A DNA stretch of 64,000 nucleotides from an uncultured Oscillospiraceae bacterium (GTDB lineage: Bacteria; Bacillota; Clostridia; Oscillospirales; SIG627). Shown here in pieces: positions 7,487-59,093 of the stretch; within the stretch, counting starts at the first letter, position 1; every line of letters starts with the position of its first letter. Location: assembly GCA_964650465.1 (NCBI GenBank), contig CAZYTA010000003.1:32268-96267 (forward strand), written 5' to 3'. The position numbers and the translations under genes were made by a program. Under the pieces are notes generated by a model. The model saw only the letters and a list, made by a program, of their open reading frames with translations, was not told the DNA's origin and did no database searches.

Positions 7487-7488
7487 TA

Positions 7489-8930: not shown

Positions 8931-8959
8931 TATGAATAGCTGAGAATTGACGGCGCAAG

Positions 8960-31207: not shown

Positions 31208-34200
31208 TTAATAGAGTCTGACCTTTTCAATATCTACAGGCATATCCACTTTCGGCTCTGTCCAATCCGAGGGATTTTCAACAGTTGCACCGCTGACACC
31301 GATAACCACATGAGCACGTGTGGTAAGGTCTGTCATAGCCTCTGCCTTGTAGGAGAAGTTAAATTTGCCCTTGGGAACTTCAAGCTTACCTGTAAAGGTG
31401 ATCTCCTTAACATGAGCTTCATCGTCTACCCACTTGCCTTCTGCATCGTAGATTTGAGTGTAGTAGTTAAGGTATGCCTTGTTTTCATCGGGATAATACT
31501 CAATGAAATCACCGCCGTGAAGCTCTGCATCAAAGGCAATTGTCTTGCCGTCAACTGTCAGAGAAGGATTTTTCACAGGTGCATCAATAGGCTCAAATGC
31601 CACAAGGTCGTCAATCTTGACACCGCTGCAGCTTCCGCAAAGGGTAACTGTTACGGAATTGAGCGCACTGAAATTGGCGTGAGCACGGTATGTCTCATAG
31701 TTGATACCGCCAGTCGAAATACCGCTGAAGGTATATCCCTCGTAATCGTCATTGTTGGCTTCAAGGAGGATTATCTCCTTCCAACCGCTGAAATTAAGAG
31801 GAATGAAGTAATCGTTTCGTCCTGCCTCCGCTGTATTGACACCTCTGAGCGTAATAAGGATAGCATCGCTTACCGAATTGTTTCCGAACACCCTTATCTT
31901 AAGTGCTGTCTTGCCCGTAGCATCAATGTTGGAAAAGCTGTATTTGCCCTTTATTTCCGTAACGGGCTTATTCTCGTCAAAGGCGTAGATAACCGTTCCG
32001 TTTTCACCCTTGGTTGAATATCTCTGCTCCAATCTAATGAATGGAGTCTGTGCATCAAATGGGTTGTTGGCACTTCCTTTTGCGAAATTAGGCTCGGAAA
32101 TATCATATATCTTGTGCTTGAAATACGTCATTTCCTTGAACGCCCAGCTTCCGTCCTCCTGCATGAATACCTTATATTCGTACTTGCCGTTCTTTATGGT
32201 ATTTCTTACCTCAGGTGAGAAGTAGTTTGCCTCACGAAGTCTGGTATAGAGTCCGTAGTACATGAAGTTGTCGGAAAGTCTGGTCTTTTCGTTAAATGCC
32301 GAAATGGAGAAGGGCTGACAAACTGTTGAGAAGTTGTAGGCTATACCGATTGAGCCCATATGGTCAAGGTCATCACGGTACATGGTTCTTGTGGTGGTAT
32401 CCTTGAACTGTGAGTCCTTGTCGGGCAGGTAGTTGAACCAGCCGAGAGTTGCGGTATAGAAAATATTGGGATAGGTCTTGAGCATTGCATTGAGATGCCC
32501 TTCCTTATGGTTCTTATATGCTCTGTATGCATAGTCTGTAGCACCGCCTCTTGCTCTTGCGCTCCAAAGGTAAGTCGCGAAGGTAGAGAACTCGATAAGA
32601 GGCTTGACCTCACAGTTTGAAACGACCGTTCGTACAAACTCGGCATAGATATAATATCCCTGTCTTGAATCATAAAGTCCATTGTGTGCAAAGGACTCGA
32701 GACCGTCAAGATAAATCATCTCAAAGCCGCCCTCGTTGTAAGCCTTGGCAGTATCCTCGGCTATCTTGTAGAACAACTCTGAAAGAGGCTGGGGCTGGAA
32801 CATGCCGTACCATCCGAGAAGCTGACGGATAACTGCGCCGTCTGCGTGCTCAGAAGGCTTTGTACCAAGCTGTCCTCGTCTTACGTTAAGGAAGCCCGAG
32901 GAGGAACCGGACTGAACGTAGATAATCTCTTCGTCGATGAGGATATATCTGGTGTGAACATTGTTCCACGGTATTGATGAGCCTGTCACCACAAATTTTG
33001 ATGCATCCTCATTGGTCTTTATGTTTGTTCTGAACTTGGAAAGCTTACCTCTCACTGTGTAGGTTTCCTCATCGAAGCAAAGCTGCTGCTGCCATTTGGG
33101 ATTGGTAAGGATATTCTTTGCATTTGAGGGAACAAGTGACGAATAGGTATGGAGACCGAGCTGTATGCCCTCTGCTCTTACCTTGTCAGCAATTCTTTCC
33201 TTGAACACCTTGGCAGTGATGAAGGTCTCGTCCTTCTTCTCCTGCTCGTTTCTTGCCGTAATGAAGTTGAAGTCAGCGGTTATGAAGTTGGAGCCCTGGT
33301 GGAGGTCCATCTGTTCGATGCTGTATTTGTTGGCAAGCTGTGCAGTCTCTGTTGCATTATCGGGATAAAGACCGCTGTTGATGATAACGTAATCTCCGAA
33401 TATATCGGAATTGTCAAGAGCATACGCACCGCCGTGTGTAGAGGTTATACCCTTTGCAGGGTCGATTGCATCCGCAATGCTCTTGAGGTGGTTGCGGTGC
33501 TCAGTCATACGGGAGAATGCAACGCCGAGCTTTGCTCCGAGGGTGGGTACGCCGAGATAGGTATAAGTAGTACCCTTTGCCGCTTTGGATGAGCCGCCCG
33601 GGTAGTAGTGGTTGTTGACCGTTGTGGTCATAGGCACGCCCGAGAGCCCGTATGCCTCGGGATTGTCAAGCTCCCAGGGGGCATTTACAGTAAGATTACA
33701 GATTACTGCACCGCTCAAAGAAGAAGGAAGGTTGGTATCAAGAGTAACCGTGAAATGGTCCTTTTTAACATCAATGATATAATAAGCAACGGTTCCGTCT
33801 TTATATGTAGTTTTGAGTCTGCCGTTTTCCACATCTACCTCGGCAGGCTGAACAGTAGCACCTGAGGCATTGATAATATAAGAGAACCAGGGAGAGGCAG
33901 AAGCAAGATTCATATCTTCACCTGTCATCTTATTGATAACAGAGGTAACCTTACCGCCCTTTCTTGCAATGGATACCTTTATATAATCGTTTTCAAAGTA
34001 TACCTCGGTACCCGACTTTTTAAGCTGAGTCAGGTCGGCATCATAATAGTAATCACCGTGTACATTGCTGTTGGATGCCATAAGAATCTGATATTCTGCC
34101 CAGTGACCGCCAATGTCCGAGAACACTGTATCAAGATGTGTTCTGCTGACTGTATCAGCGTTGGCAAGCACAGAAATAAGACGGTTTATAACCGTTACAA

Positions 34201-35821
34201 CTTCTGCACGTGTAATGGTGGCATTGGGCTTGAAGGAGCCGTCGCCATAGCCGTTTACAAGACCTGTTGCCGCCGCGGCAACAATGGCGTCATAATACTT
34301 GTTAGATTCATCAACGTCGGTAAAGGTGATATCTGATTTTGCTGTAAGATTAGATGCAAAGTATGCCAACTCAACAAACTCGGCTCTTGTTATCTTTGCA
34401 TTGGGATTGTATTTATTCGATGTATTGGTAAAGAAATATCCTGTTTCATCAAGATAAGCAATTGCATTGTAGAACCAATCCCCGTGCTTAACATCCGTGA
34501 ATCGGGTTGTATAGCCGTCTGGTATTGTCTGTGAGCCTGTGAGAAGCCTTGCAAATATTGTACAGGCTTCTGCCTTTGTCATGTTATCATTGGGCTTGAA
34601 CAGGTTTCCTGCATAGCCGTTTATGTATGCCTTATTGTTTCCGTTGGTCTGTGTTGCGACCTTGGGAAGAACTGTTACGGGGTCAGGGGCGGGGAGGTCG
34701 GCAAGATTAAGCTTTATAACCTTGTGAGTATCCTCAATGTAACCGCCTGTCTTATTGTGGTAAGGAACACCGAATCTTACATCTACGGTTTTATCCTCTT
34801 CGGAGAATTTTATCAGCAGAGGATAGGCGTTGCCCGAGGCGGCAAGATTGCCCTCAAGATTTGCCATGACTGCCGCTACATCGTAGCCGTTTTTGTTTTT
34901 AAAGGTATTTGTAACAATTTCTGCTCCGGAGTTACCTGTCGCCGAAACAATACATACGATATTGTCCCACTTAGAAAAAGCATATTCCCAGAGATTTGTA
35001 CCGTCACGGGGCTTATCGTTGTGGAGAATTCTGGTTCTTACGGTAGTGGAATACTTGGTGTATACCGCAAGCCACTCGGACTGTGAAAGATTCCAGTCAT
35101 GCTGGGTATACATCTCTCCTTTAGGGTCAAGGAAGGATGTAGTGAACACCACCGCACGCTTGTCAAGGTTGTTTTCCTGTACTGTATTGAACCAATTCAA
35201 AACAGACTGTCTCGGGAAAGCCTCAAGCTGATACACAAGGTATGAGCTTTTTCCGTCCTTGATGTAGACAACCATATTATTGCTGTCATACATTTCGTAT
35301 TCATAGCCCGAAGTTCCTATATAATCACCGGAATCAAAAACAGTCTGAAGATGGTTGTTTCTTTCAAAACCGCCGCCGCAATAGTCATTCTGTCCGATGG
35401 AAACACCGTAGGCTATTTCCATGTCGGTAAGAAGAGAGGCGGTATTTTTCAGAGCCTCAAAATCCCGCATCCATTCCTCGTCGGCAACGTTTGCTTCAAC
35501 AAGCTCTTTTTCGGTATGTCCCTGCTGTGCAACATACTGTGCGTGTACAAAGTTGGGTCCCGAGGACATGTTGCCGATAAAGCTGACATACCTGAGCCCA
35601 TAGCGGGACACAAGGTCACCAAGCCAATAGCACGCATCTTCGACGGGAGTAAGATTCAAGCCGTCTGCAAAGAATGGCTTTGTACCGTTGAAGCTTGCAA
35701 CTACAAAGTCACTCTCCTTGGCATAATCATCTTCAAGGACTGCCGTTTTTGCAAGTGAGCTCACCGTAAGAGCCGCTGCAACAGCCAAAAGACAAAGAAA
35801 CAGTGATAAAAGTCTTTTCAT
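31208..35821 (-). CDS. Giant cell-surface protein with three internal SLH domains (putative glycan-active enzyme)
   Basis: 1537 aa with a signal peptide (MKRLLSLFLCLLAVAAALTVSSLA). Three SLH repeats lie at about aa 385-560 (…YINGYAGNLFKPNDNMTKAEACTIFARLL…, …FTDVKHGDWFYNAIAYLDETGYF…, …FTDVDESNKYYDAIVAAAATGLVNGYGDGSFKPNATITRAEVVTVINRL…). About 1300 aa of the flanking sequence are unassigned. Confidence 0.65.
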   Translation of the reverse strand: MKRLLSLFLCLLAVAAALTVSSLAKTAVLEDDYAKESDFVVASFNGTKPFFADGLNLTPVEDACYWLGDLVSRYGLRYVSFIGNMSSGPNFVHAQYVAQQGHTEKELVEANVADEEWMRDFEALKNTASLLTDMEIAYGVSIGQNDYCGGGFERNNHLQTVFDSGDYIGTSGYEYEMYDSNNMVVYIKDGKSSYLVYQLEAFPRQSVLNWFNTVQENNLDKRAVVFTTSFLDPKGEMYTQHDWNLSQSEWLAVYTKYSTTVRTRILHNDKPRDGTNLWEYAFSKWDNIVCIVSATGNSGAEIVTNTFKNKNGYDVAAVMANLEGNLAASGNAYPLLIKFSEEDKTVDVRFGVPYHNKTGGYIEDTHKVIKLNLADLPAPDPVTVLPKVATQTNGNNKAYINGYAGNLFKPNDNMTKAEACTIFARLLTGSQTIPDGYTTRFTDVKHGDWFYNAIAYLDETGYFFTNTSNKYNPNAKITRAEFVELAYFASNLTAKSDITFTDVDESNKYYDAIVAAAATGLVNGYGDGSFKPNATITRAEVVTVINRLISVLANADTVSRTHLDTVFSDIGGHWAEYQILMASNSNVHGDYYYDADLTQLKKSGTEVYFENDYIKVSIARKGGKVTSVINKMTGEDMNLASASPWFSYIINASGATVQPAEVDVENGRLKTTYKDGTVAYYIIDVKKDHFTVTLDTNLPSSLSGAVICNLTVNAPWELDNPEAYGLSGVPMTTTVNNHYYPGGSSKAAKGTTYTYLGVPTLGAKLGVAFSRMTEHRNHLKSIADAIDPAKGITSTHGGAYALDNSDIFGDYVIINSGLYPDNATETAQLANKYSIEQMDLHQGSNFITADFNFITARNEQEKKDETFITAKVFKERIADKVRAEGIQLGLHTYSSLVPSNAKNILTNPKWQQQLCFDEETYTVRGKLSKFRTNIKTNEDASKFVVTGSSIPWNNVHTRYILIDEEIIYVQSGSSSGFLNVRRGQLGTKPSEHADGAVIRQLLGWYGMFQPQPLSELFYKIAEDTAKAYNEGGFEMIYLDGLESFAHNGLYDSRQGYYIYAEFVRTVVSNCEVKPLIEFSTFATYLWSARARGGATDYAYRAYKNHKEGHLNAMLKTYPNIFYTATLGWFNYLPDKDSQFKDTTTRTMYRDDLDHMGSIGIAYNFSTVCQPFSISAFNEKTRLSDNFMYYGLYTRLREANYFSPEVRNTIKNGKYEYKVFMQEDGSWAFKEMTYFKHKIYDISEPNFAKGSANNPFDAQTPFIRLEQRYSTKGENGTVIYAFDENKPVTEIKGKYSFSNIDATGKTALKIRVFGNNSVSDAILITLRGVNTAEAGRNDYFIPLNFSGWKEIILLEANNDDYEGYTFSGISTGGINYETYRAHANFSALNSVTVTLCGSCSGVKIDDLVAFEPIDAPVKNPSLTVDGKTIAFDAELHGGDFIEYYPDENKAYLNYYTQIYDAEGKWVDDEAHVKEITFTGKLEVPKGKFNFSYKAEAMTDLTTRAHVVIGVSGATVENPSDWTEPKVDMPVDIEKVRLY

Positions 35822-35916: not shown

Positions 35917-37719
35917 TTATTTTACCTGTGTCCATATTATCAGGTCGGTGGCTTCTCTGTTTGCAAATGCGAAATATGGTATCAATCTTGCCCTGAAGGA
36001 TATGCGCTCGTTCGACTTCAGTGAATAGAGCTTTTCCGAAGGCTTTCTGCGCTCTGCACGCATATATATTACGGGCGCGGGGATCCCCTCCTCTGTAACA
36101 ATCTCGGTATTTTCGTTTTCAATTAGGGTGATATCGCGGAGATTTTCGCCGTTATCGATACCCTCCATGCAATAAACAATAGGACCGCGGGTAACAGCAT
36201 ATCTGCCCGAGTCATCCTGTACATTGGGGTTTGCCTCAATAAAGTGAATATTCATGGGCAGGTCAAGTGAGACCTTACCGCCATCGGTAAGATTGAATTT
36301 TGCAAAACCGTTTTCGGTCACACCGTCATACTCCGAACACCAATCGGGTATTCTTACATTAAGGGTTATCGGCTCGCCGTGATACTCAAATTCTATATGA
36401 CCGTCAAAGGGGTAGGCAGTTTTCTGAATGAGGGTGGCGTCCCTGCCTCCGACGGTAAGCTTTGTTTCGGAGTCGGCAAACTGATTGCACCAGACGGTAT
36501 CTCCTTCTACTGTGTACATATATCTCGGAATAGAGGACAGCATTCTTACAACATTCGGAGGACAGCAGGAGCAGCCGAACACCTTAACCCTTTCTGCAAC
36601 AGGCTGATATGCACCCTCGTGTCCGTATTTCTTCAGGTCAAGCTCAAGGGGATTGGTATAGAAAAATTCATCTCCCGAAAGGGACATTCCCGATATAAAG
36701 CCGTTGTAGTATATTCTCTCAATCACATCGCCGTAAACCGAGCTTTCCTCTGATTGCTGAAGCTCAGCGGCAAGCATTGCAAGGGCTATTGCGGCACAGG
36801 TCTCATTGTAGGACTCGCGGTTTGGGATATTGTAGCAGTAGGAAAAGGCTTCATGAAACCTCTGAGCGCCCACGCCGCCCGTTATGCTCATTTTTGTGTT
36901 GATGATATCAGCGAACAGTCTGTCGCAGGCTGATTTGAGTGTGTTGTCACCGTCGATGCGGGCAAGCATTGCCATAGCTGTATAAAGGTATCCCGCGCGG
37001 ACTGCGTGACCCTTGGCATGAGTCATCTTGCGTACAGGCATTTCGGACTGAAAGTATTCGGGACCAGCATAATCAAGCTTATCATTTTCACAGACGCCTC
37101 TTTTATCTATAAAAAATCGGGCAAGCTCAAGATGCTTTTCGTCTGCTGTATATTCGTAAAGCTTCAGCAATGCTATTTCTATTTCCTCGTGTCCAGGAGT
37201 GGTAAAGGAAGCACTTCCCTCCTCAACAAAAAGGCGGTAGATAAGCTCAACATTTTTCAGCATACAGTTGAGAAGCTTATCCTTGCCCGTTGCCTTATGA
37301 TATGCGATAGCCGCTTCAATAAGATGACCTGTACAGTAAAGCTCATGCATATTTCTGTCTGTAAATATTTTTGAGGGCTCGAGGGTCAGATAGTAGGAGT
37401 TGAAATAGCCGTCTGCCCGTTGATTTTTTTCGATTTCGTCAACGGTTTTATCCACCAGGGCTTCAAGCTCTGGTTCGCGGTGTACCTCTGTGAGATAAGC
37501 CACGCCCTCTATCCATTTTGCTACATCGGAGTCCCAGAAATGATGGGGCTTCTTCACCTCGCCGTCTCTTTCCCTCCACTGACATTTGAAGGCATCAAAC
37601 CGTCCCGTTTCAAAAAATCTGTCATACACGGCACGAACGGTAACATTTCTTACAAGGTCGGTATAATATTTCCAAAATCCGTCTTTTATGGTTGTGTTTG
37701 CAAAATAAAGGTTTTTCAT
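35917..37719 (-). CDS. Glycoside hydrolase family 127 (beta-L-arabinofuranosidase, DUF1680)
   Basis: 601 aa with GH127-type motifs (HHFWDSDVAKWIEG, cysteine-rich C-terminal zinc site). Start set at MKNLYF, preceded by GGAGGAAACA. The 90-codon upstream extension in the ORF track runs through a repeat element. Confidence 0.75.
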   Translation of the reverse strand: MKNLYFANTTIKDGFWKYYTDLVRNVTVRAVYDRFFETGRFDAFKCQWRERDGEVKKPHHFWDSDVAKWIEGVAYLTEVHREPELEALVDKTVDEIEKNQRADGYFNSYYLTLEPSKIFTDRNMHELYCTGHLIEAAIAYHKATGKDKLLNCMLKNVELIYRLFVEEGSASFTTPGHEEIEIALLKLYEYTADEKHLELARFFIDKRGVCENDKLDYAGPEYFQSEMPVRKMTHAKGHAVRAGYLYTAMAMLARIDGDNTLKSACDRLFADIINTKMSITGGVGAQRFHEAFSYCYNIPNRESYNETCAAIALAMLAAELQQSEESSVYGDVIERIYYNGFISGMSLSGDEFFYTNPLELDLKKYGHEGAYQPVAERVKVFGCSCCPPNVVRMLSSIPRYMYTVEGDTVWCNQFADSETKLTVGGRDATLIQKTAYPFDGHIEFEYHGEPITLNVRIPDWCSEYDGVTENGFAKFNLTDGGKVSLDLPMNIHFIEANPNVQDDSGRYAVTRGPIVYCMEGIDNGENLRDITLIENENTEIVTEEGIPAPVIYMRAERRKPSEKLYSLKSNERISFRARLIPYFAFANREATDLIIWTQVK

Positions 37720-37734
37720 TGTTTCCTCCGTTAT

Positions 37735-38010
37735 AGCCGAAGAGAGTCGAACCCTTGTCGGTTTCAGAGGGGAATTTTCGCCCCTGCCATCGTTACATTC
37801 CCTTGTAATACGGCAGTATGACTGCGGGAAATGTGCCTTGCCAGGAACAAAAATTTCCGTCTGAAACTTCCCGAGAACCGAGAAAAGATGATTTTCGAGG
37901 ATAAATTTTCTTGAGGAATGCAGGAATACTATATGTATTCTAAGGGACGAAAGGAAATTTAGACAGAAAAGGGCTTTTCTCGGCGGCAATGGTTCGATTC
38001 CCTTCGGCTA
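37735..38010 (-). repeat. TIR-bounded structured element, copy 2 (276 bp)
   Basis: TIRs TAGCCGAAGAGAGTCGAAC … GGTTCGATTCCCTTCGGCTA. Both ends match copy 1 at about 85%. It carries an internal insertion of about 120 nt. It ends 5 nt from the GH127 RBS (minus strand) and abuts the -35 box of the divergent AraC promoter. Confidence 0.6.
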
Positions 38011-38105: not shown

Positions 38106-38867
38106 ATGCTTGAAAGCGTAAGATATGTAAGCGGCGGTAAGTTCATATCCAGAGGGCAATGGATACACCCCGACAGAATAATTGATTCGTATGAGGTAAT
38201 TTTTGTAATTAAGGGTGAGGTTTTTATAAACGAAAACGGCAGAGAGTATCGCCTTTCGGAAAACGACCTGCTTATTTTAGACCCTGAATTGCGGCATTTC
38301 GGATATAGAGAGAGCAGTGATACATCTTTTTATTGGATGCATTGGACCTGCGATACAAAGCTTTTTCCCGACACAAAGGAGCTTAACCTATCAAAGCCGT
38401 ACAACCTTTCCATACTGTTCAGTCAGCTTTTGAATTACACCTTTGAAAAAGCGCCGTCGGAAATTCTTGATTATACGGCAAGGCTGATTTTGGGTGAGAT
38501 ATATTTCAAGTCGGGAAATGACGGGGATATCCGTATAGCCAACACAGCGGCAGATTGGATAAGGGCGAACAGTGACCTGCAGATAAAGACCTCCGATGTA
38601 TCCCGACATTTTGGCTACAACAGCGACTATATAAGCCGACTCTTTAAAAGGGCGTATAAAAAATCCTTGAAGGAATACATTGACGAGGCAAAAACCGAGT
38701 ATATAAAGAACATGCTTCTGAACACCTCGATGACCCTCAATGAAATTTCGTCCTCCTGCGGCTTCAAGGAATACAAGTATTTTCTTAAATTCTTCAAGTA
38801 TCACACGAAAATGACACCGACGGAATTTCTCGGTATATATTCGGGAACGCATATCAATATCAAATGA
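38106..38867 (+). CDS. AraC family transcriptional regulator (cupin + HTH)
   Basis: HTH_AraC C-terminus (…SSSCGFKEYKYFLKFFKYHTKMTPTEF). Confidence 0.8.
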   Translation: MLESVRYVSGGKFISRGQWIHPDRIIDSYEVIFVIKGEVFINENGREYRLSENDLLILDPELRHFGYRESSDTSFYWMHWTCDTKLFPDTKELNLSKPYNLSILFSQLLNYTFEKAPSEILDYTARLILGEIYFKSGNDGDIRIANTAADWIRANSDLQIKTSDVSRHFGYNSDYISRLFKRAYKKSLKEYIDEAKTEYIKNMLLNTSMTLNEISSSCGFKEYKYFLKFFKYHTKMTPTEFLGIYSGTHINIK

Positions 38868-39094: not shown

Positions 39095-39985
39095 TTATGC
39101 CATATAATATTTTTTCATCATTGTTTTTGTGAACTCAAGGAGGAAAAGTGCTTCGCTGTCAAGCTTTTCTTCGGTGAGACCTTCCTGGAGGTTACGCCAT
39201 GTGCGGATATCGTAGCCTACCTCGTTGCCCATGCGGAGAAAGGGCTCTGATACGATGTCCTTCTTGTATCCGATATCGCTGAGCGCCTTGAATATCTCAT
39301 TCCAGTCAAGGTGTCCTCTTCCGGGCACATTACGGTTATTCTCGCCTGTGTGGAAGTGACGGAGTCTGCTGCCTACAAGACGGATAGCATCTCCGATATT
39401 ATCCTCCTCAATGCCCATGTGGTAGGTATCGAGGTGGATACCTATGTTCTTGCTGTTTACCATATCGGCATAGGCTATAGCCTCTTTTGCGGTATTGATA
39501 ACGGGAGATTCGAAGCGGTTAACAGCTTCAACACAAACCGTAACGCCTTCCTTTTCGGCTACCTTCATTACCTGCTGCATACTGTCGACACTGCGTGCGG
39601 TGATAGCCTCCTTCTCCTTTTCGTCGATGAAATATGTAGGAACGCCCCAGCCTGCGTAGGTAACGCCCGAAAACAGCTCGCCCTCCATAACAGCAATCTT
39701 TCTGACGATGTTTGAGAGGTATTCGACACCGCCGCGGCGGATTTCGGCATCGGGATTTGCCACATCGTATTTGGGGTTGAGACCGAGGCTGTAGGAAAGC
39801 TTTATTCCGCGCTCATCTGCATACTTCTTGATTTCGCGGCATTCTGCATCGGTCATTTCAAGAAGGGGCTGAGCCTGAAACTCAAGGATATCGAAGCCAA
39901 GCTTCTTCACCTTGTCGATGTAATACTTATAGTTGATAGTCCATGACTGCTCCCAGAAGTTTACGAAAATACCAAGCTTATTCAT
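39095..39985 (-). CDS. Ketose 3-epimerase-like TIM-barrel protein (D-psicose/D-tagatose 3-epimerase family)
   Basis: 296-aa xylose-isomerase-like barrel. The layout (…VCVEAVNRFE…HLDTYHMGIEE…HFHTGENNR) is typical of DTE/DPE enzymes. RBS is AAGGAG. Confidence 0.55.
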   Translation of the reverse strand: MNKLGIFVNFWEQSWTINYKYYIDKVKKLGFDILEFQAQPLLEMTDAECREIKKYADERGIKLSYSLGLNPKYDVANPDAEIRRGGVEYLSNIVRKIAVMEGELFSGVTYAGWGVPTYFIDEKEKEAITARSVDSMQQVMKVAEKEGVTVCVEAVNRFESPVINTAKEAIAYADMVNSKNIGIHLDTYHMGIEEDNIGDAIRLVGSRLRHFHTGENNRNVPGRGHLDWNEIFKALSDIGYKKDIVSEPFLRMGNEVGYDIRTWRNLQEGLTEEKLDSEALFLLEFTKTMMKKYYMA

Positions 39986-39997
39986 TTTTCATACTCC

Positions 39998-41392
39998 TTA
40001 CAATATATCTATTTTATAGCCGAGATACTTATCAAATGCCTCGCGTACCGCTTCTGCCCAATGACCTCTTGTAACCGCTACATGATGGCGGTAGCCGTTT
40101 GTTGCCATGAAGTTGAGAAGTGTGCTTACATTCTCCTTACAGAATACCGCACCGCTTCCGAAAAATTCCTTCTGAATGGGGTCATCTGTAAGCTTACCCT
40201 CTGCGGCGAAGGCACAAAGCTCGCCGTTTTCGGTCTTGAAGCTTCCGATAGTTACATCGTCAACAATGAACTGACCCTTATTTACGCCGACACCGCTTCC
40301 CTCGCCGTAAGACTTCTTGAACATAAGATGCTCAATAATCTTGCCCTTGTTTCTCATAAGAGATATAGGTGCGGGACCGCAGTGGAAGAGAATTATCTTA
40401 TCCTTATCGTCGCCGTAGTTGTTGTTGACATCAAGGAGCATTACGGGGTAGTCAGCCGCAAGTCCGACTGCGCGCATCATGACAGCGTTGGTGATATCAA
40501 GCTCGCAGGCGGCATGGATTCCCTTTTCATTAAGGTCTCCGAGAATGAGACAGGGGGCTATACCGTACCTTGTCTGAAGCTCGTTCCAGCAACGGATAGC
40601 AATTGCTTGGAGGTCAAATTCCTCAATAAGACCGTCGATAACAACGCCGAGTCTTGAAATGTTCTCAAGCTTTTCGGGAGGATAATTTCCAAAATCGGAA
40701 AGTCCTGCATAGTAATTCATCTTATCCTTAAGAAGCGTGCTGTTCACATTGTCCATTCGGTCGAACACCAAGGACAGATCGATGGTCTCCACATTTATAC
40801 GCTTGTTCTGAAGTGCAATTTCATCACAGCGGACACTCTTGAAGGCGGTAGTTCTTGCGCCGATAGCGCCTATGTTTACCCTTCTCATACCTGAAACCAC
40901 TCGGCAGGTACCTGCAAAGAGCCTCAAATCCTCTGCAAAGGACTCAGAAAGAGGATGCACGCAGAATTCCCTTGTAAGAGTATACTTAATGTTAAGCTGA
41001 CGGAGTACATTACACATAGCAAACTTACCGCAAACGGCATCTCTTCTGTGGTCAAAGTCCATCTTGCCGTCCTCGTCGGGATAAGCCTGCACAAGCACGG
41101 GAACATCGATGTCGCGGAATGCGGCAGAAGCTCCGTTCTCGTCTCCGAAGTTGGGAAGGCAGAGAATTATGCCGTCATACTCACCTCTGTGGTCATCAAG
41201 GAACTGTGCGTAAGCCTTGCCCTCGGTCAGCGTTTCAACAGCGCCGTAGCGGGTAAGGGACTCGTCCATGATTATATAGCCGTAGCCGTTCTGCTCGCAA
41301 GCCTTGATCATATCGGCTCTTGCCGATGCAATAAGCTCACCCGGGAAAAATCCTCGGTTGCCGAAATATAATGCAAATGTAGTTTTTTTCAA
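39998..41392 (-). CDS. L-fucose isomerase family protein (FucI-like, short form)
   Basis: About 465 aa. Probable TTG start 6 nt after a GAGGTG RBS. The ORF track gives an ATG at 41413, 7 codons upstream. Confidence 0.55.
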   Translation of the reverse strand: MKKTTFALYFGNRGFFPGELIASARADMIKACEQNGYGYIIMDESLTRYGAVETLTEGKAYAQFLDDHRGEYDGIILCLPNFGDENGASAAFRDIDVPVLVQAYPDEDGKMDFDHRRDAVCGKFAMCNVLRQLNIKYTLTREFCVHPLSESFAEDLRLFAGTCRVVSGMRRVNIGAIGARTTAFKSVRCDEIALQNKRINVETIDLSLVFDRMDNVNSTLLKDKMNYYAGLSDFGNYPPEKLENISRLGVVIDGLIEEFDLQAIAIRCWNELQTRYGIAPCLILGDLNEKGIHAACELDITNAVMMRAVGLAADYPVMLLDVNNNYGDDKDKIILFHCGPAPISLMRNKGKIIEHLMFKKSYGEGSGVGVNKGQFIVDDVTIGSFKTENGELCAFAAEGKLTDDPIQKEFFGSGAVFCKENVSTLLNFMATNGYRHHVAVTRGHWAEAVREAFDKYLGYKIDIL

Positions 41393-41538
41393 TATTATCA
41401 CCTCGAATATCATTATACAGATATTTTGTCAAACATTATAGGCATAAGTTGCCCTAAAGTATGATAAAATCTTCCCGAATGTATAATTTTTGTATTGCAA
41501 TTTCGATATAGTCATGTTAATATAGAGTGGGTGATAGA

Positions 41539-42399
41539 ATGATAATTAACTTTAATATTGACAGGCTGAACGGCTTGCTTCTTGATTTTTACAAGCTTAC
41601 GGGGCTTACTATCAGTGTATGGGACAAGGATTTCAATCAGCTTTCCTTTCAGCCCTCCGATATGCCCGGCTTTTGCCGTATGATAAAGGAGACAAAGGAG
41701 GGCAACAGCCGCTGTCTTGAAAGCGACAAGAAAATATGTATGATGTGTCGGTCAACTGGAGAAGCACAGACACACATATGCCATGCAGGCTTGATAGATA
41801 CCGCAATCCCAATAAAATTCAAGGACAGCATTTTAGGATACATGATGTTCGGTCAGGCAAGTCCCGAGGAGGACGGGAAAAGACTCACACAAAGGATAAA
41901 AAAGTTAAGCCGCGAGCTGAAAATAGATGAGCAGGAGCTGTTTTACTCCCATCGTGAGCTGACAAAATACCAGCCCGACATAGTGCAATCGGCAGCAAAT
42001 ATTCTGAAAATGGCTACCCGTTACCTGTGGCTTTCCGATATGATACAGATAAGCAGTGACGGAATCAGCGAGAGAATAAGCGAATATGTGAGGTCGAATA
42101 TTTCATCAAAGATAACCGTAGAAATGCTTTGCAGTGAGTTCAATATATCGAAAAACAAGCTCTATGCCCTGACTCAAAAGGCATGGGGAATGAACATAGG
42201 AGAATATGTGTCCTCTCAAAGAATAGAGAGTGCAAAGGCACTGCTGACCACTACCGACATGCCCATATCTGAGGTATGCCACGCAGTAGGCATTGTGGAG
42301 TACAATTATTTTACAAAGCTGTTCAAAAAGCAGACGGGGTACACTCCCCTGTCCTACCGTAAGAAATTCCCCTTTGTGCTGAATGCAAGCAAAGGCTGA
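41539..42399 (+). CDS. PocR-sensor AraC family transcriptional regulator
   Basis: N-terminal cysteine-containing PocR-like ligand-binding domain (FCRMIKETKEGNSRCLESDKKICMMCRS…CHAGLIDTAIPI). C-terminal HTH_AraC. Confidence 0.65.
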   Translation: MIINFNIDRLNGLLLDFYKLTGLTISVWDKDFNQLSFQPSDMPGFCRMIKETKEGNSRCLESDKKICMMCRSTGEAQTHICHAGLIDTAIPIKFKDSILGYMMFGQASPEEDGKRLTQRIKKLSRELKIDEQELFYSHRELTKYQPDIVQSAANILKMATRYLWLSDMIQISSDGISERISEYVRSNISSKITVEMLCSEFNISKNKLYALTQKAWGMNIGEYVSSQRIESAKALLTTTDMPISEVCHAVGIVEYNYFTKLFKKQTGYTPLSYRKKFPFVLNASKG

Positions 42400-42422
42400 G
42401 TCATGTTGACTCAGCCTTTTGA

Positions 42423-44351
42423 TTATTGGTTTACTATTTCGTTTTTAACCACCGATTTAAGCATACCGCCGATGCGGATTATAAATTGATCGTTGTCAAG
42501 TATTTTGTGGTAAACGGGCTCGTTGCGCTTAAGTATATCCACGAGCTCGGACCAAAGAATATCCGCTTCGTCGCTTTTGCCGATATTCTTGTATAACAGC
42601 GCATTGGCAAGGTGTAGCATCACCTCGTTGTGATACAGGAGATATCCCCACGATTTTTTCACATTGCCCGCCTCAAGCTCTGTATGCTTTTGAATTACAG
42701 GCTTGAATTCATGGAGTAATGCGATACATTTCTTTATATTTTCCAAATTAGCAATGCTTTCCTCGGAGCCGTTTACAAAGCCGCTGATTTTTTCAAGGTA
42801 TTGCTTTACGGCAAGTCCGTTTTTACCGAAGGCGGACATAAAGTATTTGGTGCTTTCGGCTTCAAAGTCGGCATCTTTATTCCAGAGAGCTACAGCCATC
42901 ATATATGTTGGCAATGCAGTAGGAAAAGCGTTTCTTGTTACCTGACAGCTTACCATTCCGTTGAGGGAAAGTCTGTCAAGATTTTGCATATCGGTGAATA
43001 CCCTTCGGGCAATATACATACCGCCGAGGTCTCTCCACTGACGGGCAAAAAGGTGATAATCAAAATCAAAGGAATCACCGTCGAATATATCCTGCCACTC
43101 CGAAAGGAGCTTGGCGCACTTGCCAATGTCAGAGGGTGATACAGACTTATTCTTTACGTAGGGAACACTCTCATATGAACGAGGGTCGGTGATGCTGTCA
43201 AAGCCGTATTCGTATGAACGACCCCCGGGGGCAAGCATTAGGACAAAACGATCTTTGTTGTAAAAGCGCTCCTTGACGGGTGCCCAGGTAACGTCGGTAT
43301 AAGTAAGGAATACTATTTTCGTGTCAATGCCAAGGTCCGTGAGCCTTCTGTCAAGGTCATTGAGCATCATTACATAATAATCTGAAGGGCGCTCAACGCA
43401 GTTTTCACACTCACATGAATTTTTCTGACCATCCGCCAGCCAGAAGTGAAGCAAGTCAACCTTCGGGTTTTCCTTGCAGTAATCAACTATTGAACTGACA
43501 ATTATCTCACGCACCTTGGGATTTGAATAGCAGAGGTTTGTCCAATTCGGTACATTACCGTGAAATTCACGCTTGCCGTTTTTCATGGCAAGATGCCACT
43601 TTCTGTCCTCAGGAACAGAATTCGGCTCGACGGGATAACCTCCGTTGCCCTCAAAGCCAAAGGGAGTGCTTGTCCAGCCGTGTCCAACATGGTGAAACAG
43701 AAGTCCGCGCTTCTTCATTTCCTCCACAAGAGAATCAAACATAGCTGTGACATCCTCACGGCTGACCGTTTCGCCGTCAATATATTCGTTTGCGTAATGG
43801 GTATACCATCTGTCCATAAAGCGAAAAGGTATAAAGAACTGAAAGAAATAACCGCTCATACCCATGCGGGGAAGCCACTTTATCATATTAAGTATATGCT
43901 CGTAGGAAACATCTCCCTCAATGCATATTGCTCTGTGGCGGTAGGATGCCTTTTCACTTACATCAACATTGATATCGGTTATTTTGTATTCGGGAATAAT
44001 TTCGCCGTCATCTGTAGGTCTCACCCATGCCACACCAAGCTCACGCAGGAAGCGGTAAGCGGCAATAAGCACCGCACCCGAATTACAGCCTGTAATGATA
44101 CCTGCATTGTTTTTTACATTGATATATATGGAAGTATCAAGCCTTTTATCCTCTACAGCGGGAAGGAGGGAGGAAAACGCCTCACTCTCCCCTACCCATA
44201 TAACTCTGTCAACGGATTTATCGTATTCGTTATAATAACGGACATCAACAAAAAGTGAGCTGTCGATTTTTTTAAGATAGCTATAAAGCTCTTCAACGGC
44301 ATATGCTGCCGCAGGGCTGCTTCCTATTCTTGCAAGAGTTATTCTTGTCAT
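42423..44351 (-). CDS. Hypothetical 642-aa protein, paralog 1 (GH20b-like N-domain + barrel; DUF4838-like?)
   Basis: About 65-70% identical by eye to the adjacent paralog. Conserved CECENC motif. Start set at MTRITLARIG, preceded by AGGTGG. Confidence 0.55.
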   Translation of the reverse strand: MTRITLARIGSSPAAAYAVEELYSYLKKIDSSLFVDVRYYNEYDKSVDRVIWVGESEAFSSLLPAVEDKRLDTSIYINVKNNAGIITGCNSGAVLIAAYRFLRELGVAWVRPTDDGEIIPEYKITDINVDVSEKASYRHRAICIEGDVSYEHILNMIKWLPRMGMSGYFFQFFIPFRFMDRWYTHYANEYIDGETVSREDVTAMFDSLVEEMKKRGLLFHHVGHGWTSTPFGFEGNGGYPVEPNSVPEDRKWHLAMKNGKREFHGNVPNWTNLCYSNPKVREIIVSSIVDYCKENPKVDLLHFWLADGQKNSCECENCVERPSDYYVMMLNDLDRRLTDLGIDTKIVFLTYTDVTWAPVKERFYNKDRFVLMLAPGGRSYEYGFDSITDPRSYESVPYVKNKSVSPSDIGKCAKLLSEWQDIFDGDSFDFDYHLFARQWRDLGGMYIARRVFTDMQNLDRLSLNGMVSCQVTRNAFPTALPTYMMAVALWNKDADFEAESTKYFMSAFGKNGLAVKQYLEKISGFVNGSEESIANLENIKKCIALLHEFKPVIQKHTELEAGNVKKSWGYLLYHNEVMLHLANALLYKNIGKSDEADILWSELVDILKRNEPVYHKILDNDQFIIRIGGMLKSVVKNEIVNQ

Positions 44352-44403
44352 AATCCACCTATTCAAGCCGTTGTGCAGAATGACACAACGGCTTGCTTGA
44401 AAA

Positions 44404-46335
44404 TTACATAATTGATTTTTTGACTATACCGTGAACCTGCATAACATCGAGGACCTTATGGAGGCTTGTTTCGTTTCTCATAAGGTAATCGACAAAGGAG
44501 CCTACTGCCTTATCGACAGTTCCTTCGTTGCCTTCTATTGCCTGAATTACGCAATTTACGAAATATTCAACATATACCTTGTGAAGAACAAGATATTCCC
44601 AGGATTTGAGCTGACCTGCAGGAAGGTTCTTTGCGAGATTCTTCTTTACTGTTGCTTCAAATTCAGCAACGAGTGCCAAAGCCTTCTTGACAAGTGCAAG
44701 ACGCTTTTCCTTTTCATAGGGGCGGTTGCCTACCTGACGGGAGTACACAGGGTCCACGAGGTCGCTGAGGGTCATCATATATTCCTTTACAGCCTTCCAA
44801 TCCTCGCCGAATGCCGACTTGAAGTAGGTATCACACCTTTCGTCAAAGTCGCAGGTCTCGTCCCAAAGGGCATCTGCCATGAGCTGCATGGGCAGGTTTG
44901 TGGGGAATGCACAGCGGGTAAGCTGACAGGACACCATACCGTCAAGACCTATTTTGTGAAGGGCTTGCATATCGCGGAAGAGGATATTTGCAACCTTGTA
45001 ATAACCGAGGTCATAGAGGTGATCCCACATAAGATGATAGTCGAATACGAAGCTGTCCTCGGAATGTATCTTTTTCCAGCCCTTGAGAAGCTCGAAGTTT
45101 ACACCTACATCCTTGGGGAAGTTAAGCTTATTCTTGATATATTCGGGTGCATCGTAGGTCTTTGTCATATCAAGCTGGTCATAGCTCTGTGAGTATGAGC
45201 GTGTGATAGGTGCGAACATGAGTACAAAGCGGTCGGGGTTGTTGAAGCTCTCCTTGAGGGGACCCCAAAGAAGATCCACATATATAAGGAATACTATCTT
45301 GGTATCGACACCCATTTTTGCAAGCTTTGCATCAACCTCGTTAAGCATCATTACGAAGTAATCCGAGGGGCGCTCAACACAGTTTTCGCACTCGCAGTTA
45401 TTGTTTGAGCCGTCTGCAAGCCAGAAGTGGAGGTATTTTACCTCGGGGTTATCGCGGCAGTATTCAGCCATGGCAGTGGTGAGAGTGTCACGCACCTTGG
45501 GATTTGAGTAGCAGAGGTTTGTATTGAGCGGTACATCGCCCCAGAATTTGCGCTCGCCGTCTACCATGGCAAGAATGTCTCTTATTTCCTGCGAAACATC
45601 CTCGGTGTTTACCTTTACCCAGCCGTCGCCGCCGGGAATGCCGAAGGGCTCACAGGTCCATCCGTGGCCTACCTTATGAAGAAGAAGCTCTCTCTTTTCT
45701 ATTTCCTCGGAGAGCTGAGAAACTATTGCGTCTACATCCTCTCTCGACACATTTTCGCTGTCATAATTGGGGTTGCTTGTATGGCTATACCATCTGTCGA
45801 AAAAGTGGAAGGGACGGTTGAACTGGAAGAAATAGCCGCTCATGCCCGCTCTGGGTATCCACTTTATCATATTTAAAACATGCTCGTAGGAAACCGAGCC
45901 CTCGATACATACTGCTCTGTGGCGGTAGGACGCCTTCTCCTGTACATTTACATTTATGTCTGTTACTGTATATTCGGGCACAACCTCGCCGTCGTCGGTG
46001 GGTCTTACCCATGCGACACCAAGCTCCTTGAGGAATCGGTATGCGGCAATGAGGACAGACCTGGGATTACAGCCTGTAATGACACCTGCGTTGTTCTCAA
46101 CCGAAATGAAAATAGAATCATCTCTCTTGGGGTCCTTTACTTCAAGAAGCCTTGAGTTAAGCTTCTCACTGTTACCAACCCATATAACTCTGTCAACCGA
46201 CTCATCGTAATCCGAATATGCACGGATATCAACAAAGAGTGTGCTGTCGATTTTTTTGAGGTAGGTATAAAGCTCCTCAACTGCATAATTTACAGTTTCG
46301 TTTCTGCCTATTTTGGCAAGTGTTATTCTTGTCAT
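44404..46335 (-). CDS. Hypothetical 643-aa protein, paralog 2
   Basis: Tandem duplicate of the downstream gene. RBS is AAGGAGAA. Confidence 0.55.
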   Translation of the reverse strand: MTRITLAKIGRNETVNYAVEELYTYLKKIDSTLFVDIRAYSDYDESVDRVIWVGNSEKLNSRLLEVKDPKRDDSIFISVENNAGVITGCNPRSVLIAAYRFLKELGVAWVRPTDDGEVVPEYTVTDINVNVQEKASYRHRAVCIEGSVSYEHVLNMIKWIPRAGMSGYFFQFNRPFHFFDRWYSHTSNPNYDSENVSREDVDAIVSQLSEEIEKRELLLHKVGHGWTCEPFGIPGGDGWVKVNTEDVSQEIRDILAMVDGERKFWGDVPLNTNLCYSNPKVRDTLTTAMAEYCRDNPEVKYLHFWLADGSNNNCECENCVERPSDYFVMMLNEVDAKLAKMGVDTKIVFLIYVDLLWGPLKESFNNPDRFVLMFAPITRSYSQSYDQLDMTKTYDAPEYIKNKLNFPKDVGVNFELLKGWKKIHSEDSFVFDYHLMWDHLYDLGYYKVANILFRDMQALHKIGLDGMVSCQLTRCAFPTNLPMQLMADALWDETCDFDERCDTYFKSAFGEDWKAVKEYMMTLSDLVDPVYSRQVGNRPYEKEKRLALVKKALALVAEFEATVKKNLAKNLPAGQLKSWEYLVLHKVYVEYFVNCVIQAIEGNEGTVDKAVGSFVDYLMRNETSLHKVLDVMQVHGIVKKSIM

Positions 46336-46440
46336 GTTTTTTCTCCTTTTCGGGATTTATTTACTGATTTGAGTGTAGCACAAAATAGGCGATTAGTCAA
46401 TGGATTTACGGAAATCGTCGGTTAATTTCCCCGATAAATA

Positions 46441-46476
46441 CAAAGACTGCCGTTTTTTGAGAACGGCAGTCTTTGT
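46441..46476. terminator. Hairpin terminator
   Basis: CAAAGACTGCCGTT-ttttgaga-AACGGCAGTCTTTG. Confidence 0.6.
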
Positions 46477-46478
46477 AT

Positions 46479-46994
46479 TTAGTCTTCTACGTATTTATAC
46501 ATTTTTTCGGGGTATATGAGCTGTGCTACCCTTTTATTTTCGTAATGTACTACATAGTACATATCCTTTAGTGTTGCAAGCTGAAAGGCAGTGTTATCCA
46601 CAATTACTTCGTCAAAGCCTTCAAAGTACAAATTTTTATAGATGCGAAAATGCTTTCCGTTACGTTCTGTTTTCTCTTCCTTATATTGCAATTCACAGAC
46701 AGATATCTTGAACTTGCCTTTTTTAATAAGTGACTTGGCTCTTAAAGCATCACATATGCAATAAATGAAAAAAAGCAATGGGAAACTTAATATAACTGCA
46801 ATTACGACAGCTACCGCCATAACCGACTTTTCTACAGCAACATACACCGCTAATATAACGCAAGGTAAAAGGAGCACGTATATTCCGCAGAGCAGCAGAT
46901 TTATTTTTATCGTGTCGTTAATTCCCTTGTACAATTCCTTTTCAACCGATCTGCGTGTAATACTGTTTTTTGTTTGCACGTTTGAATAATACAT
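46479..46994 (-). CDS. Hypothetical membrane protein
   Basis: 171 aa with two central TM helices. No recognisable family. Confidence 0.4.
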   Translation of the reverse strand: MYYSNVQTKNSITRRSVEKELYKGINDTIKINLLLCGIYVLLLPCVILAVYVAVEKSVMAVAVVIAVILSFPLLFFIYCICDALRAKSLIKKGKFKISVCELQYKEEKTERNGKHFRIYKNLYFEGFDEVIVDNTAFQLATLKDMYYVVHYENKRVAQLIYPEKMYKYVED

Positions 46995-48481: not shown

Positions 48482-49090
48482 TTACTTTCTCTTTACCACC
48501 AGACTGGTCTGACCGCTTACGCCCGTAACAATTACCTCTGTGCCTGTTTTAATGGGCTCGGCTTCGTCTGTGACTGCGTTTATCTCGGCGTAGGTGCCCT
48601 GAAGCATTACCTGCACCTTGCCCTCTCCGCTTCTTGAGGCAGGGATTGTAAGGTATACCTTTCCTGCGGTGCCCACTGTGTTGCGGTTATCGAGATTTCC
48701 GTCGCTTCTGAGCTTCATTACCGCTCTGAGCAGGAATGCAAGAACCACCATCATGAGAAATCCGCACAGTGCCGCAACCGATACAGTTGCCAATATACCT
48801 GCGCCCGAGCTGTCAAGGACTGTACCAACCCAGCCGAACACCACGAGGAATGCCACCATGCCTCTTACGGTGAAGATGCGGAGTCCGTCAAGTCCCTCAA
48901 AATCGTGGGGTATGTCGTCAACATCGGCATCAAACTCCACCTCGGTGTCATCGGGGATATCACTGTCATCCCCGAAGCCTATCAACATGGTTGCTGTCTG
49001 TATGAGCAGTACCAGAGTTGAGGGGACTGCTATGCAGGTAAATATCTGGGATATTATGCTGAGTGAATTCCACCATTCTATTATAAACAT
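48482..49090 (-). CDS. NfeD family protein (membrane + C-terminal OB-fold)
   Basis: 202 aa. This is the classic partner gene found upstream of flotillin. Confidence 0.65.
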   Translation of the reverse strand: MFIIEWWNSLSIISQIFTCIAVPSTLVLLIQTATMLIGFGDDSDIPDDTEVEFDADVDDIPHDFEGLDGLRIFTVRGMVAFLVVFGWVGTVLDSSGAGILATVSVAALCGFLMMVVLAFLLRAVMKLRSDGNLDNRNTVGTAGKVYLTIPASRSGEGKVQVMLQGTYAEINAVTDEAEPIKTGTEVIVTGVSGQTSLVVKRK

Positions 49091-53783: not shown

Positions 53784-55070
53784 TTAAGCCTCAACACTCA
53801 ATACTGTTCCCAAAAACAGAGGAAGATTGGTTTGTGTGTCTATTATTGCAAAAACAAATGGTCTGTTAACGGTAACGTATTTTACATTTGCAGGAGGCAC
53901 AGCTGCCGATTCTGTATTTACCGCTACAGAGGTAACTGCAGCAGCTCTTGTTCCGTCCTCCGCAACCTCAATAAAGGTCTTATGAATAACCTCGCTGACA
54001 TACAGGTTTCCTTTATCCGATGTTCCCAGCCCCGAAAGGTCCGCCGCAGATGAATCAAACGCATCGGTGAGTCCCATTGCTTTCAGAGTATCATTCAAAT
54101 TTGCAGAATATTCATAAGAGAATTTCGGCAGCTTTGCTTCCACGGTTACTGTCTGGGGTGCAGAAAGCATATTTATCAGCTTCTCCCCTGTCAGTTCAGA
54201 TACATATTCATTTATTGATATTTCACTGTCAGGAAGGAACACCGCAAAGGCGTATTCTCCGCCCTTATAGTTTTTAATAAAGCCTGTTGTGTTTTCGTCT
54301 TCCAGGTAGAGTGCCTCTGTTGAGTACATTCCTGTTACCGTCTCTGTATCTCCTGCACAGTTGGTAAATTTGAAATAATCAGATGTTTCGGTATATTCTC
54401 TCTGCCATTTTGCATCAAAAGCAAGTGCATTTATGAGATACATAACTGTATCAACTGATATTTTATCAATAATCTCTTTAATCATTCCGTCGGTATTGTC
54501 ATCCACCCAGTGATTGATGTCTTTAACAGTGCTGTCATCAAAGGGCTTTGTGAAAACATCGGCATCAAACACGTCGTCGGCATATTCAATAAAATCCTCA
54601 TCTACTCTTATGGCGCCGTCGTCATCTCTGACCCACACTGAATTTGCTACATCTATCTCTGCATTTTCGCTGTCTTCAAGCTTTTCTGTAAGACGCTGAT
54701 AGAAGCCGTTCATCTCTGCCATAGAAATACCTCTGCCCAGCACCTTTTCAAACTGGCTGTAGGTGTCCCCCTTTGCACCGCCTGCGGTAAGTCCGAGAGC
54801 GATTGAAACAGAAACAGGAGAGACAAGCACGTTACGGTCACCCTTATAAAGTGATTTTATTGTATCAACGGCAATATCTGTTATTGCCTCCTCGGGAGTA
54901 CGGGCGTTTTGGGTAATGTCGGGCGTAATATCGATTTCAATTTTATCTGCGTTGGGGATAATTATCGGTTCTTTCAAGGAATAGGTACTGACACAGGAGG
55001 ACAGTGAGAGAATAAGCGAAGCAACGAGTAAAGCGGACAATAATCTTTTCATTGTTTTAATTCCTTTCAT
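53784..55070 (-). CDS. Serpin family protease inhibitor, lipoprotein
   Basis: Lipoprotein signal sequence …LLVASLILSLSSC. Serpin core and C-terminal signature (…NRPFVFAIIDTQTNLPLFLGTVLSVEA). The ORF track start is 17 codons further upstream. Confidence 0.7.
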   Translation of the reverse strand: MKGIKTMKRLLSALLVASLILSLSSCVSTYSLKEPIIIPNADKIEIDITPDITQNARTPEEAITDIAVDTIKSLYKGDRNVLVSPVSVSIALGLTAGGAKGDTYSQFEKVLGRGISMAEMNGFYQRLTEKLEDSENAEIDVANSVWVRDDDGAIRVDEDFIEYADDVFDADVFTKPFDDSTVKDINHWVDDNTDGMIKEIIDKISVDTVMYLINALAFDAKWQREYTETSDYFKFTNCAGDTETVTGMYSTEALYLEDENTTGFIKNYKGGEYAFAVFLPDSEISINEYVSELTGEKLINMLSAPQTVTVEAKLPKFSYEYSANLNDTLKAMGLTDAFDSSAADLSGLGTSDKGNLYVSEVIHKTFIEVAEDGTRAAAVTSVAVNTESAAVPPANVKYVTVNRPFVFAIIDTQTNLPLFLGTVLSVEA

Positions 55071-55124
55071 CTTTTGTCTATTAGACGGTGGGAATACTTT
55101 TTTGTTCCGCATATTTTGCAAAAA

Positions 55125-58923: not shown

Positions 58924-59093
58924 GATCCTTACCTCTTTTAGTAAAAATTTATAGAAGTACATACTTTAACAGTGTTATTATATAACTATTTTCCCAAAAA
59001 GTCAACCTCTAAAAAAAATATGTATAATAACACACAAATATGAAGCTTTCATATTGTACAAAATCACCCGAAGCAATGCTTCGGGTGAAATGA

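Follow-up and report, generated by a model that had tools for sequence, protein, structure and literature searches.

A tandem pair of glycosidase genes

The window analyzed here is a stretch of 64,000 nucleotides from an uncultured Oscillospiraceae bacterium (positions 32,268 to 96,267 of contig CAZYTA010000003.1, assembly GCA_964650465.1). On its minus strand lie two adjacent open reading frames (ORFs), listed at 42423-44366 and 44404-46335, that encode paralogous proteins and that a preliminary description of the locus had taken for recent duplicates from a possibly novel glycosidase family. Both ORFs proved to be real and intact, and their products belong to an already named family of glycoside hydrolases, GH185 (DUF4838), related to the GH20 enzymes; they represent no new fold, family or mechanism.

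The first gene of the pair, which we call paralog B, occupies positions 44404..46335 (minus strand) and encodes 643 amino acids. The second, paralog A, occupies 42423..44351 on the same strand and encodes 642 amino acids. The start codon of A is most likely the ATG at 44351 rather than the TTG at 44366, as judged from the N-terminus MTRITLA, which is then the same as that of B. A database protein (P0014) is identical to A, and the window holds no third copy. These lengths replace the 645 residues given earlier for both proteins.

Compared over their full length by BLASTP, A and B are 53% identical with 69% positives, rather than the two-thirds identity first described; identity reaches 66-71% over the first 240 alignment columns only and drops to 26-46% over the C-terminal 200. 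Over the aligned codons, nucleotide identity is 60%. The reported sharing of a long identical nucleotide stretch was borne out: the 33-nucleotide sequence ACGCACCTTGGGATTTGA(A/G)TAGCAGAGGTTTGT occurs exactly twice, on the minus strand at 45490..45522 in B and 43509..43541 in A, against a chance expectation of 0. It coincides with a conserved motif, TNLCYSNPKVR, and includes the codon for the fourth cysteine of a cluster discussed below (C274 in A; C275 in B, just before helix alpha3).

Neither protein has an N-terminal hydrophobic segment or a transmembrane stretch (maximum 19-residue Kyte-Doolittle hydropathy 1.26-1.37), which agrees with the earlier statement that signal peptides are lacking, as judged by a crude hydropathy scan and not by a dedicated predictor. 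In the predicted structures the first strand of the fold begins at residue 3, in agreement with a cytoplasmic location. The original view of A and B as cytoplasmic proteins of glycoside hydrolase type is supported.

Assignment to family GH185

Both proteins match the Pfam model PF16126 (DUF4838) with scores of 42.3 and 39.6 bits (E 7e-11 and 4.7e-10) that exceed its gathering score of 26.6; the alignment is weak, at about 40 bits, and covers profile positions 80-324. No NCBIfam family model matched A or B in a scan of that database, sequence searches of the PDB with B and with a 56-sequence profile returned no solved relative, and tblastn detected nothing similar among plasmids.

Two CAZy families, GH163 and GH185, have DUF4838 as their catalytic domain (PMC10570127). 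The founder of GH163, BT1035, is a surface endo-beta-N-acetylglucosaminidase, and the founder of GH185, Sp_0475 of Streptococcus pneumoniae, is a cytoplasmic retaining exo 6-sulfo-beta-N-acetylglucosaminidase whose active-site residues were identified by mutagenesis as Q174, H227, D309 and Y436, with R633 binding the sulfate (PMC10570127). To place A and B relative to Sp_0475, we collected family representatives by a profile search and re-queried with a low-GC representative (P0190), which led to Streptococcus and Enterococcus proteins. One S. pneumoniae protein, P0414, is the 646-residue form from a cluster of 3131 members. It carries Q174, H227, D309, Y436 and R633 at exactly the published positions, and we have therefore taken it as the sequence form of Sp_0475.

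B is 35% identical to P0414 over residues 11-639 (E 8e-135) and A is 36% identical over residues 15-619 (E 1e-131), in both cases colinearly. In the published similarity network of DUF4838 proteins, clusters were defined by E <= 1e-74 and more than 30% pairwise identity, and GH185 corresponds to 'cluster 3' (PMC10570127). Because the similarity of A and B to P0414 exceeds these thresholds and the active-site residues are conserved, we file both proteins as GH185 members. The suggestion of a possibly novel family does not survive these two results, the Pfam match above gathering score and the 35-36% identity to the GH185 founder over nearly the full length.

The residues aligned with the catalytic set of Sp_0475 are Q171, H224, D307 and Y432 in A, and Q171, H224, D308 and Y433 in B. 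Their spacing, 53/83-84/125, is close to the 53/82/127 of Sp_0475. Across 374 family sequences (numbered as in B), H224 and D308 show no variation and 373 retain Y433; position 171 is occupied by Q in 350 and by E in 21. This last pattern reproduces the published remark that Q174 is replaced in a few GH185 members, and then only by Glu (PMC10570127). At the 50% identity level, a profile search with a threshold of E <= 1e-30 delimits GH185 at 654 protein clusters.

Structure and related families

AlphaFold models of A and B, with mean predicted local distance difference test scores (pLDDT) of 94.0 and 93.8, respectively, show a GH20b-like alpha/beta domain at the N-terminus (approximately residues 1-125), an eight-stranded (beta/alpha)8 barrel (approximately 135-495) and, at the C-terminus, a helical bundle. 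A structural comparison with the PDB by Foldseek found GH84 O-GlcNAcases first (E 4e-13), followed by GH115, GH67, GH89 and GH20 enzymes. The preliminary description had recognized a GH20b-type domain followed by a probable barrel from the sequence, and that structural guess was correct.

The protein most similar to A and B among characterized enzymes is Sp_0475 itself. In addition to the colinear homology and the shared Q/H/D/Y set, it falls in the same length class (642-646 residues), consists of a DUF4838 protein without a signal peptide, carries a C-x-C-x-x-C motif after strand beta4, and has the same structural neighbors, GH115 and GH84, as published. It differs from both paralogs in having Asp276 where they have the fourth cysteine, in having proline rather than histidine after the catalytic tyrosine, and in the sulfate-binding Arg633, where both have glutamine. 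The genomic setting differs as well: Sp_0475 lies among phosphotransferase system (PTS) and GH1 genes, whereas A and B form a stand-alone tandem pair in the genome of one uncultured, Oscillospiraceae-like member of the gut Clostridia.

GH163, represented by the Bacteroides thetaiotaomicron enzyme BT1035 (which cleaves complex N-glycans as an endo-beta-N-acetylglucosaminidase), shares with A and B the DUF4838 catalytic domain and the arrangement of four cysteines, one before alpha3 and a C-x-C-x-x-C after beta4 (PMC11776370). BT1035 has been described as a surface protein with a C-terminal F5/F8 domain. A and B have neither a signal peptide nor a Pfam match to an F5/F8 (discoidin) domain and end instead in the helical bundle, and so lack the feature set of GH163.

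The GH20 and GH84 enzymes resemble A and B in combining a GH20b-like N-domain with a triosephosphate isomerase (TIM) barrel and, in GH84, with a helical bundle too; catalysis by GH185 is modeled on their substrate-assisted retaining mechanism. The likeness is at the level of the fold, with sequence identity of only 10-13%. Pfam gives no GH20 or GH84 match for A or B, and neither the H-x-G-G motif nor a D-E or D-D catalytic pair is present at the barrel positions, which places the pair outside GH20. The GH115 alpha-glucuronidases (PDB 4zmh, 7pxq and 4c90) are likewise similar in fold only, at 10-12% identity; GH115 enzymes act on glucuronic acid side chains by an inverting mechanism with different catalytic residues.

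A conserved four-cysteine cluster

The CECENC motif noted earlier is present in both proteins. In B it is residues 314-319, encoded at 45379..45396 (minus strand) and located in the loop that follows barrel strand 4, six residues past Asp308, which lies in the WLADG sequence at 45409-45423. In A it is residues 313-318, encoded at 43398..43415 (minus strand), with WLADG and the catalytic Asp307 at 43428-43442. Together with the cysteine before alpha3, the clusters consist of C275, C314, C316 and C319 in B, and C274, C313, C315 and C318 in A. The motif columns are cysteine in 372 of the 374 family sequences.

A cysteine cluster occurs in several TIM-barrel glycoside hydrolase families; in GH163 and GH42 it consists of a cysteine before alpha3 and C-x-C-x-x-C after beta4, and zinc is present in the solved GH42 structures (PMC11776370). 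The C-x-C-x-x-C motif has been described for both GH163 and GH185, with GH185 said to lack the first cysteine (PMC11776370). That cysteine is present in A and B and in 158 of 160 family representatives, which makes a cluster of four cysteines the rule in this family. Aspartate at this column, as in Sp_0475, is confined to a subset of the Streptococcus-type clade, where 81 sequences have D and 38 have C. The published statement holds for Sp_0475 and part of its clade only. From their position in the sequence and the literature on related barrels, the four cysteines probably hold a structural zinc beside the catalytic loop.

An old duplication and a recurrent pair

To get a view of the age of the duplication, we compared A and B with their relatives in other genomes. 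The A orthologs are 67-78% identical to A and the B orthologs 63-85% identical to B, and a neighbor-joining tree (constructed without bootstrap) assigns the two paralogs to different clades. At least three further organisms have the same B-then-A tandem, at loci L002 (3659-7554), L083 (8060-11914), L084 (2383-6295) and L085 (193-4105), where the B-type gene encodes 643 residues and the A-type gene after it 636-641, and the flanking genes differ. The closest syntenic relative is L083 (GCA_045531285.1), which has its upstream synteny in common with the window. The closest relative in GTDB, L003, carries just one B ortholog (81% identical to B), located between CLC channel and M18 peptidase genes.

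Given that the two paralogs sit in separate clades with orthologs of their own and that the B-then-A order is recurrent, the duplication must be old and the pair a conserved unit, contrary to the recent duplication first proposed. Gene conversion was considered as a source of the identical nucleotide stretches and rejected: compared segment by segment, A and B are nowhere more similar to each other than A is to B-type orthologs from other genomes. The conservation of the pair possibly reflects a shared substrate or a heteromer.

Other tandem arrays, of two to four GH185 copies, were found in 15 of 82 loci, a set that includes L001, the window's own organism. According to the tree, these arrays are independent, lineage-specific duplications. 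Arrays of three or four copies are found in metagenome-assembled genomes (MAGs) of gut and rumen Clostridia (L014:219-8838, L068:1-7965, L032:6025-11842 and L060:6203-11851), and several MAGs carry GH185 copies on more than one contig.

Predicted catalysis and substrate specificity

By homology to Sp_0475, A and B are most likely retaining exo-beta-N-acetylhexosaminidases that act on small imported oligosaccharides. Catalysis would be substrate-assisted, with the 2-acetamido group of the substrate as the nucleophile. Asp307 of A and Asp308 of B would serve as acid/base and His224 would tune this aspartate, while Gln171 would stabilize the oxazoline intermediate and Tyr432 or Tyr433 is likewise predicted to stabilize the intermediate.

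At the column of the sulfate-binding Arg633, A has Gln622 and B has Gln633. In the clade of Sp_0475, which includes proteins from Streptococcus, Enterococcus, Lachnospiraceae and Gardnerella, this column is arginine in 119 of 119 members. The 120 sequences closest to B most often have Glu (33), Asn (30) or Gln (14) there, and arginine is not one of their eight most frequent residues. An R633Q variant of Sp_0475 lost its preference for the sulfated substrate (PMC10570127). Because both copies have glutamine in place of Arg633, they are probably not specific for 6-sulfo-N-acetylglucosamine in the manner of Sp_0475, and we infer that the substrate is probably a different one.

The alignment at this column is colinear, with LDVSQ in the A-clade orthologs, LDVMQ in B and LDVYR in Sp_0475, and the last helix begins right after the conserved aspartate in both AlphaFold models. 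The placement of gaps by BLAST had made Arg626 of A a candidate for the direct equivalent of R633; this was rejected in view of the colinear motifs and the common start of the last helix.

A and B probably differ in specificity from each other also, since the C-terminal bundle that supplies the R633 position is the part in which they are most divergent and since the A clade has two basic residues of its own. Lys310 of A (codon 43422-43424, minus strand) lies three residues past the catalytic aspartate, and Arg626 (codon 42474-42476, minus strand) one helical turn after Gln622. Both are specific to the A clade: position 310 is K, R or T in its six members (K in four) and N in 94% of the family, and Arg626 is kept in all six, with a hydrophobic residue in its place in the B clade. 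Together, Lys310 and Arg626 could form an alternative anion-binding site.

These basic residues also bear on a different explanation, that A, or both copies, are genuine 6-sulfo-beta-N-acetylglucosaminidases which bind sulfate through other basic residues (Lys310 and Arg626 in A), with A acting on sulfated and B on non-sulfated hexosaminides of host mucin-type glycans. Alternative sulfate-binding residues have been suggested for other family members (PMC10570127), a GH109-like gene in the window gives a hint of host-glycan use, and GH20 and PIG-L deacetylase genes recur beside relatives of the pair. However, the glutamine found in both copies is the very substitution that removed sulfate preference in Sp_0475, and the glutamate found at this column in many B relatives would repel sulfate. 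Moreover, no sugar-sulfate sulfatase lies near the pair, the sole Sulfatase-domain protein of the window being encoded 20 kb away (20572-22527). We consider this explanation unlikely, though it fares better than the two discussed below.

Transcription signals and genomic context

The pair appears, from the signals around it, to be a two-gene unit of its own, with B transcribed before A. Upstream of B on the minus strand are a promoter-like site (TTGACT-17-TACACT with a TG extension, 46372..46400) and, before the ATG, the candidate ribosome-binding site AAAGGAGAA, both identified as consensus matches. Further upstream, after the gene for a 171-residue protein, a strong hairpin at 46436..46480 (minus strand; -27.8 kcal/mol, z -9.9) is a probable terminator that would isolate the pair from upstream transcription. 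The 52-nucleotide spacer between B and A contains a 13-bp hairpin at 44364..44395 (minus strand; -25 kcal/mol in a 66-nucleotide fold, z -4.4); it has no U tract and could be an attenuating or stabilizing element inside the two-gene transcript. Another 13-bp hairpin, at 42391..42419, lies between the stop codon of A and that of the convergent gene next to it, and is a probable bidirectional terminator.

This convergent gene (41527/41539..42399, plus strand) encodes an AraC-family regulator with PocR-sensor and AraC domains, and it ends 23 nucleotides from the stop codon of A. Beyond it, and divergent from it, is a separate transcription unit on the minus strand (39095..41413) with genes for a FucI-family isomerase (39998-41413) and a D-psicose 3-epimerase (39095-39985; NCBIfam NF051856, 365 bits against a cutoff of 300), so that the isomerase and the ketose-3-epimerase-like enzyme named earlier were correctly recognized. 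Further along, at 35917-37989, is a gene for a GH127-family protein with all three Pfam GH127 domains, for which the best NCBIfam model is aceric acid hydrolase, although the score is far under the cutoff (356 against 950 bits); a divergent AraC regulator of its own is encoded at 38106-38867.

The preliminary description placed the pair under the PocR-AraC regulator, as an upstream gene. The domains of the regulator are as described, but its gene is convergent with the pair at the 3' end and shares the hairpin with it, and the pair is therefore not visibly under its control.

A scan for related loci provided a comparative view; the best 80 loci all come from uncultured MAGs, of Clostridia type and others, and Streptococcus is absent from them. 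A clear homolog of the PocR-AraC regulator near a family member was seen in L076 only, with a weak match (25%) in L044. In L076, positions 7141-11887 encode on one strand a PocR-AraC protein (48% identical to that of the window), the S component of an energy-coupling factor (ECF) transporter, a PRK-like kinase, an ATP-binding cassette (ABC)-type ATPase and a GH185 protein. Among 139 flanking genes the commonest classes are AraC regulators (6), ADP-ribosylglycohydrolases (5), xylose-isomerase-like barrels (4) and PIG-L proteins (3), and GH20 genes occur in five related loci.

These observations bear on the possibility, proposed earlier in similar form, that the pair, the regulator, the isomerase, the epimerase and perhaps the GH127-like enzyme constitute one catabolic module, in which a rare or plant-derived, non-hexosamine sugar is released and then converted. 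The genes are physically close, L076 has its regulator homolog approximately 2 kb upstream of the family member on the same strand, xylose-isomerase-like TIM barrels are weakly recurrent beside relatives, and GH115, whose members are alpha-glucuronidases and not hexosaminidases, is among the nearest solved folds. Nonetheless, the regulator points toward the pair and away from the isomerase operon, hairpins flank the pair on both sides, and none of the 80 best related loci has a homolog of the FucI-like isomerase, the psicose epimerase or the GH127 protein beside the family member. The B-A pair is itself kept in L002, L083, L084 and L085, with other, unrelated genes downstream of A in L002 and the end of the contig in the remaining three, and the complete catalytic set of a substrate-assisted hexosaminidase is conserved. 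On the strength of the gene orientation, the hairpins and the missing neighbors, the rare-sugar module is not supported, and we regard it as improbable.

It is more improbable still that copy A is degenerating or non-catalytic, perhaps serving B as a binding or regulatory partner: it departs from the family at three of 73 columns that are at least 90% conserved (D73T, R92G and N310K, where B matches all 73) and its last nine residues are predicted to be disordered in the AlphaFold model, but neither copy is a pseudogene, the ORF of A is intact with all four catalytic residues and four cysteines, at least five other sequences, 67-78% identical to A, show that A-type orthologs are maintained, and D73T and R92G, both in the N-terminal domain, are private to this genome.

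Other genes in the window and at related loci

Several GH185 genes at related loci (five to six loci) recur beside a gene of the ADP-ribosylglycohydrolase family and one for a 717-residue protein without a Pfam match, for example at L021 (8401-9840 and 12305-14458) and also at L019 and L023.

Elsewhere in the window, a 1537-residue protein with S-layer homology repeats (31208-35821) has no further Pfam domain over most of its length. A bacterial serpin (53784-55121), a 1221-residue BspA-type leucine-rich-repeat protein (55297-58962) and a GH109-like protein (59094-60374) of alpha-N-acetylgalactosaminidase type that combines a GFO/IDH/MocA domain with a GH109 C-domain together give a hint of a host-associated lifestyle.

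Five ORFs have no Pfam match: 8960-11026 (688 residues), 61419-62822 (467), 30140-31129 (329), 46479-46994 (171) and 48482-49090 (202). The 329- and 171-residue ORFs, the only two of these searched against NCBIfam, have no match there either. In the syntenic relative L083 the 202-residue ORF is conserved between genes for DUF1836 and Band7 proteins, and the 171-residue ORF, directly upstream of B in the window, was not called.

Discussion

The explanation that we find best supported, and hold with reasonable though not full confidence, is that A and B are anciently diverged GH185 (DUF4838) paralogs, likely retaining exo-beta-N-acetylhexosaminidases, that form a two-gene unit of their own. Several points weigh against it. 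To our knowledge, only a single GH185 enzyme has been characterized to date. At 35% identity, the substrate, and even the sugar recognized, may be different from those of Sp_0475. The promoter and terminator calls are matches to a consensus or to a folding energy, and the proximity of the four cysteines to one another and the nearness of Lys310 and Arg626 to the active site are inferred from sequence position and the literature. The genomic context indicates neither a transporter nor a downstream pathway, and no class of gene dominates among the 139 flanking genes surveyed. Finally, R633, which marks the known activity and not the family, is not conserved in GH185, and different residues might serve for sulfate binding elsewhere in the family (PMC10570127).

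A further step, which we put forward tentatively and would not ourselves expect to hold in full, is that the B-then-A pair represents two GH185 subfamilies with specificities that have not been described, B for a neutral substrate, given its glutamine at the Arg633 position, and A with a different anion site at Lys310 and Arg626. In uncultured, Oscillospiraceae-like gut bacteria the two would jointly process one class of imported hexosaminide oligosaccharides, and the tandem arrays would mark a diversifying family.

Were this so, GH185 would be a rapidly diversifying and largely unexplored family of cytoplasmic glycosidases, marked in gut Clostridia by arrays of two to four copies. The branch around A and B is without the residue that gives the sole known GH185 activity its specificity, and the family has expanded repeatedly in tandem arrays. 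Most of the relatives sampled are from uncultured gut and rumen Clostridia. With one characterized enzyme set against 654 clusters, the pair is a reasonable and cheap target for substrate screening.

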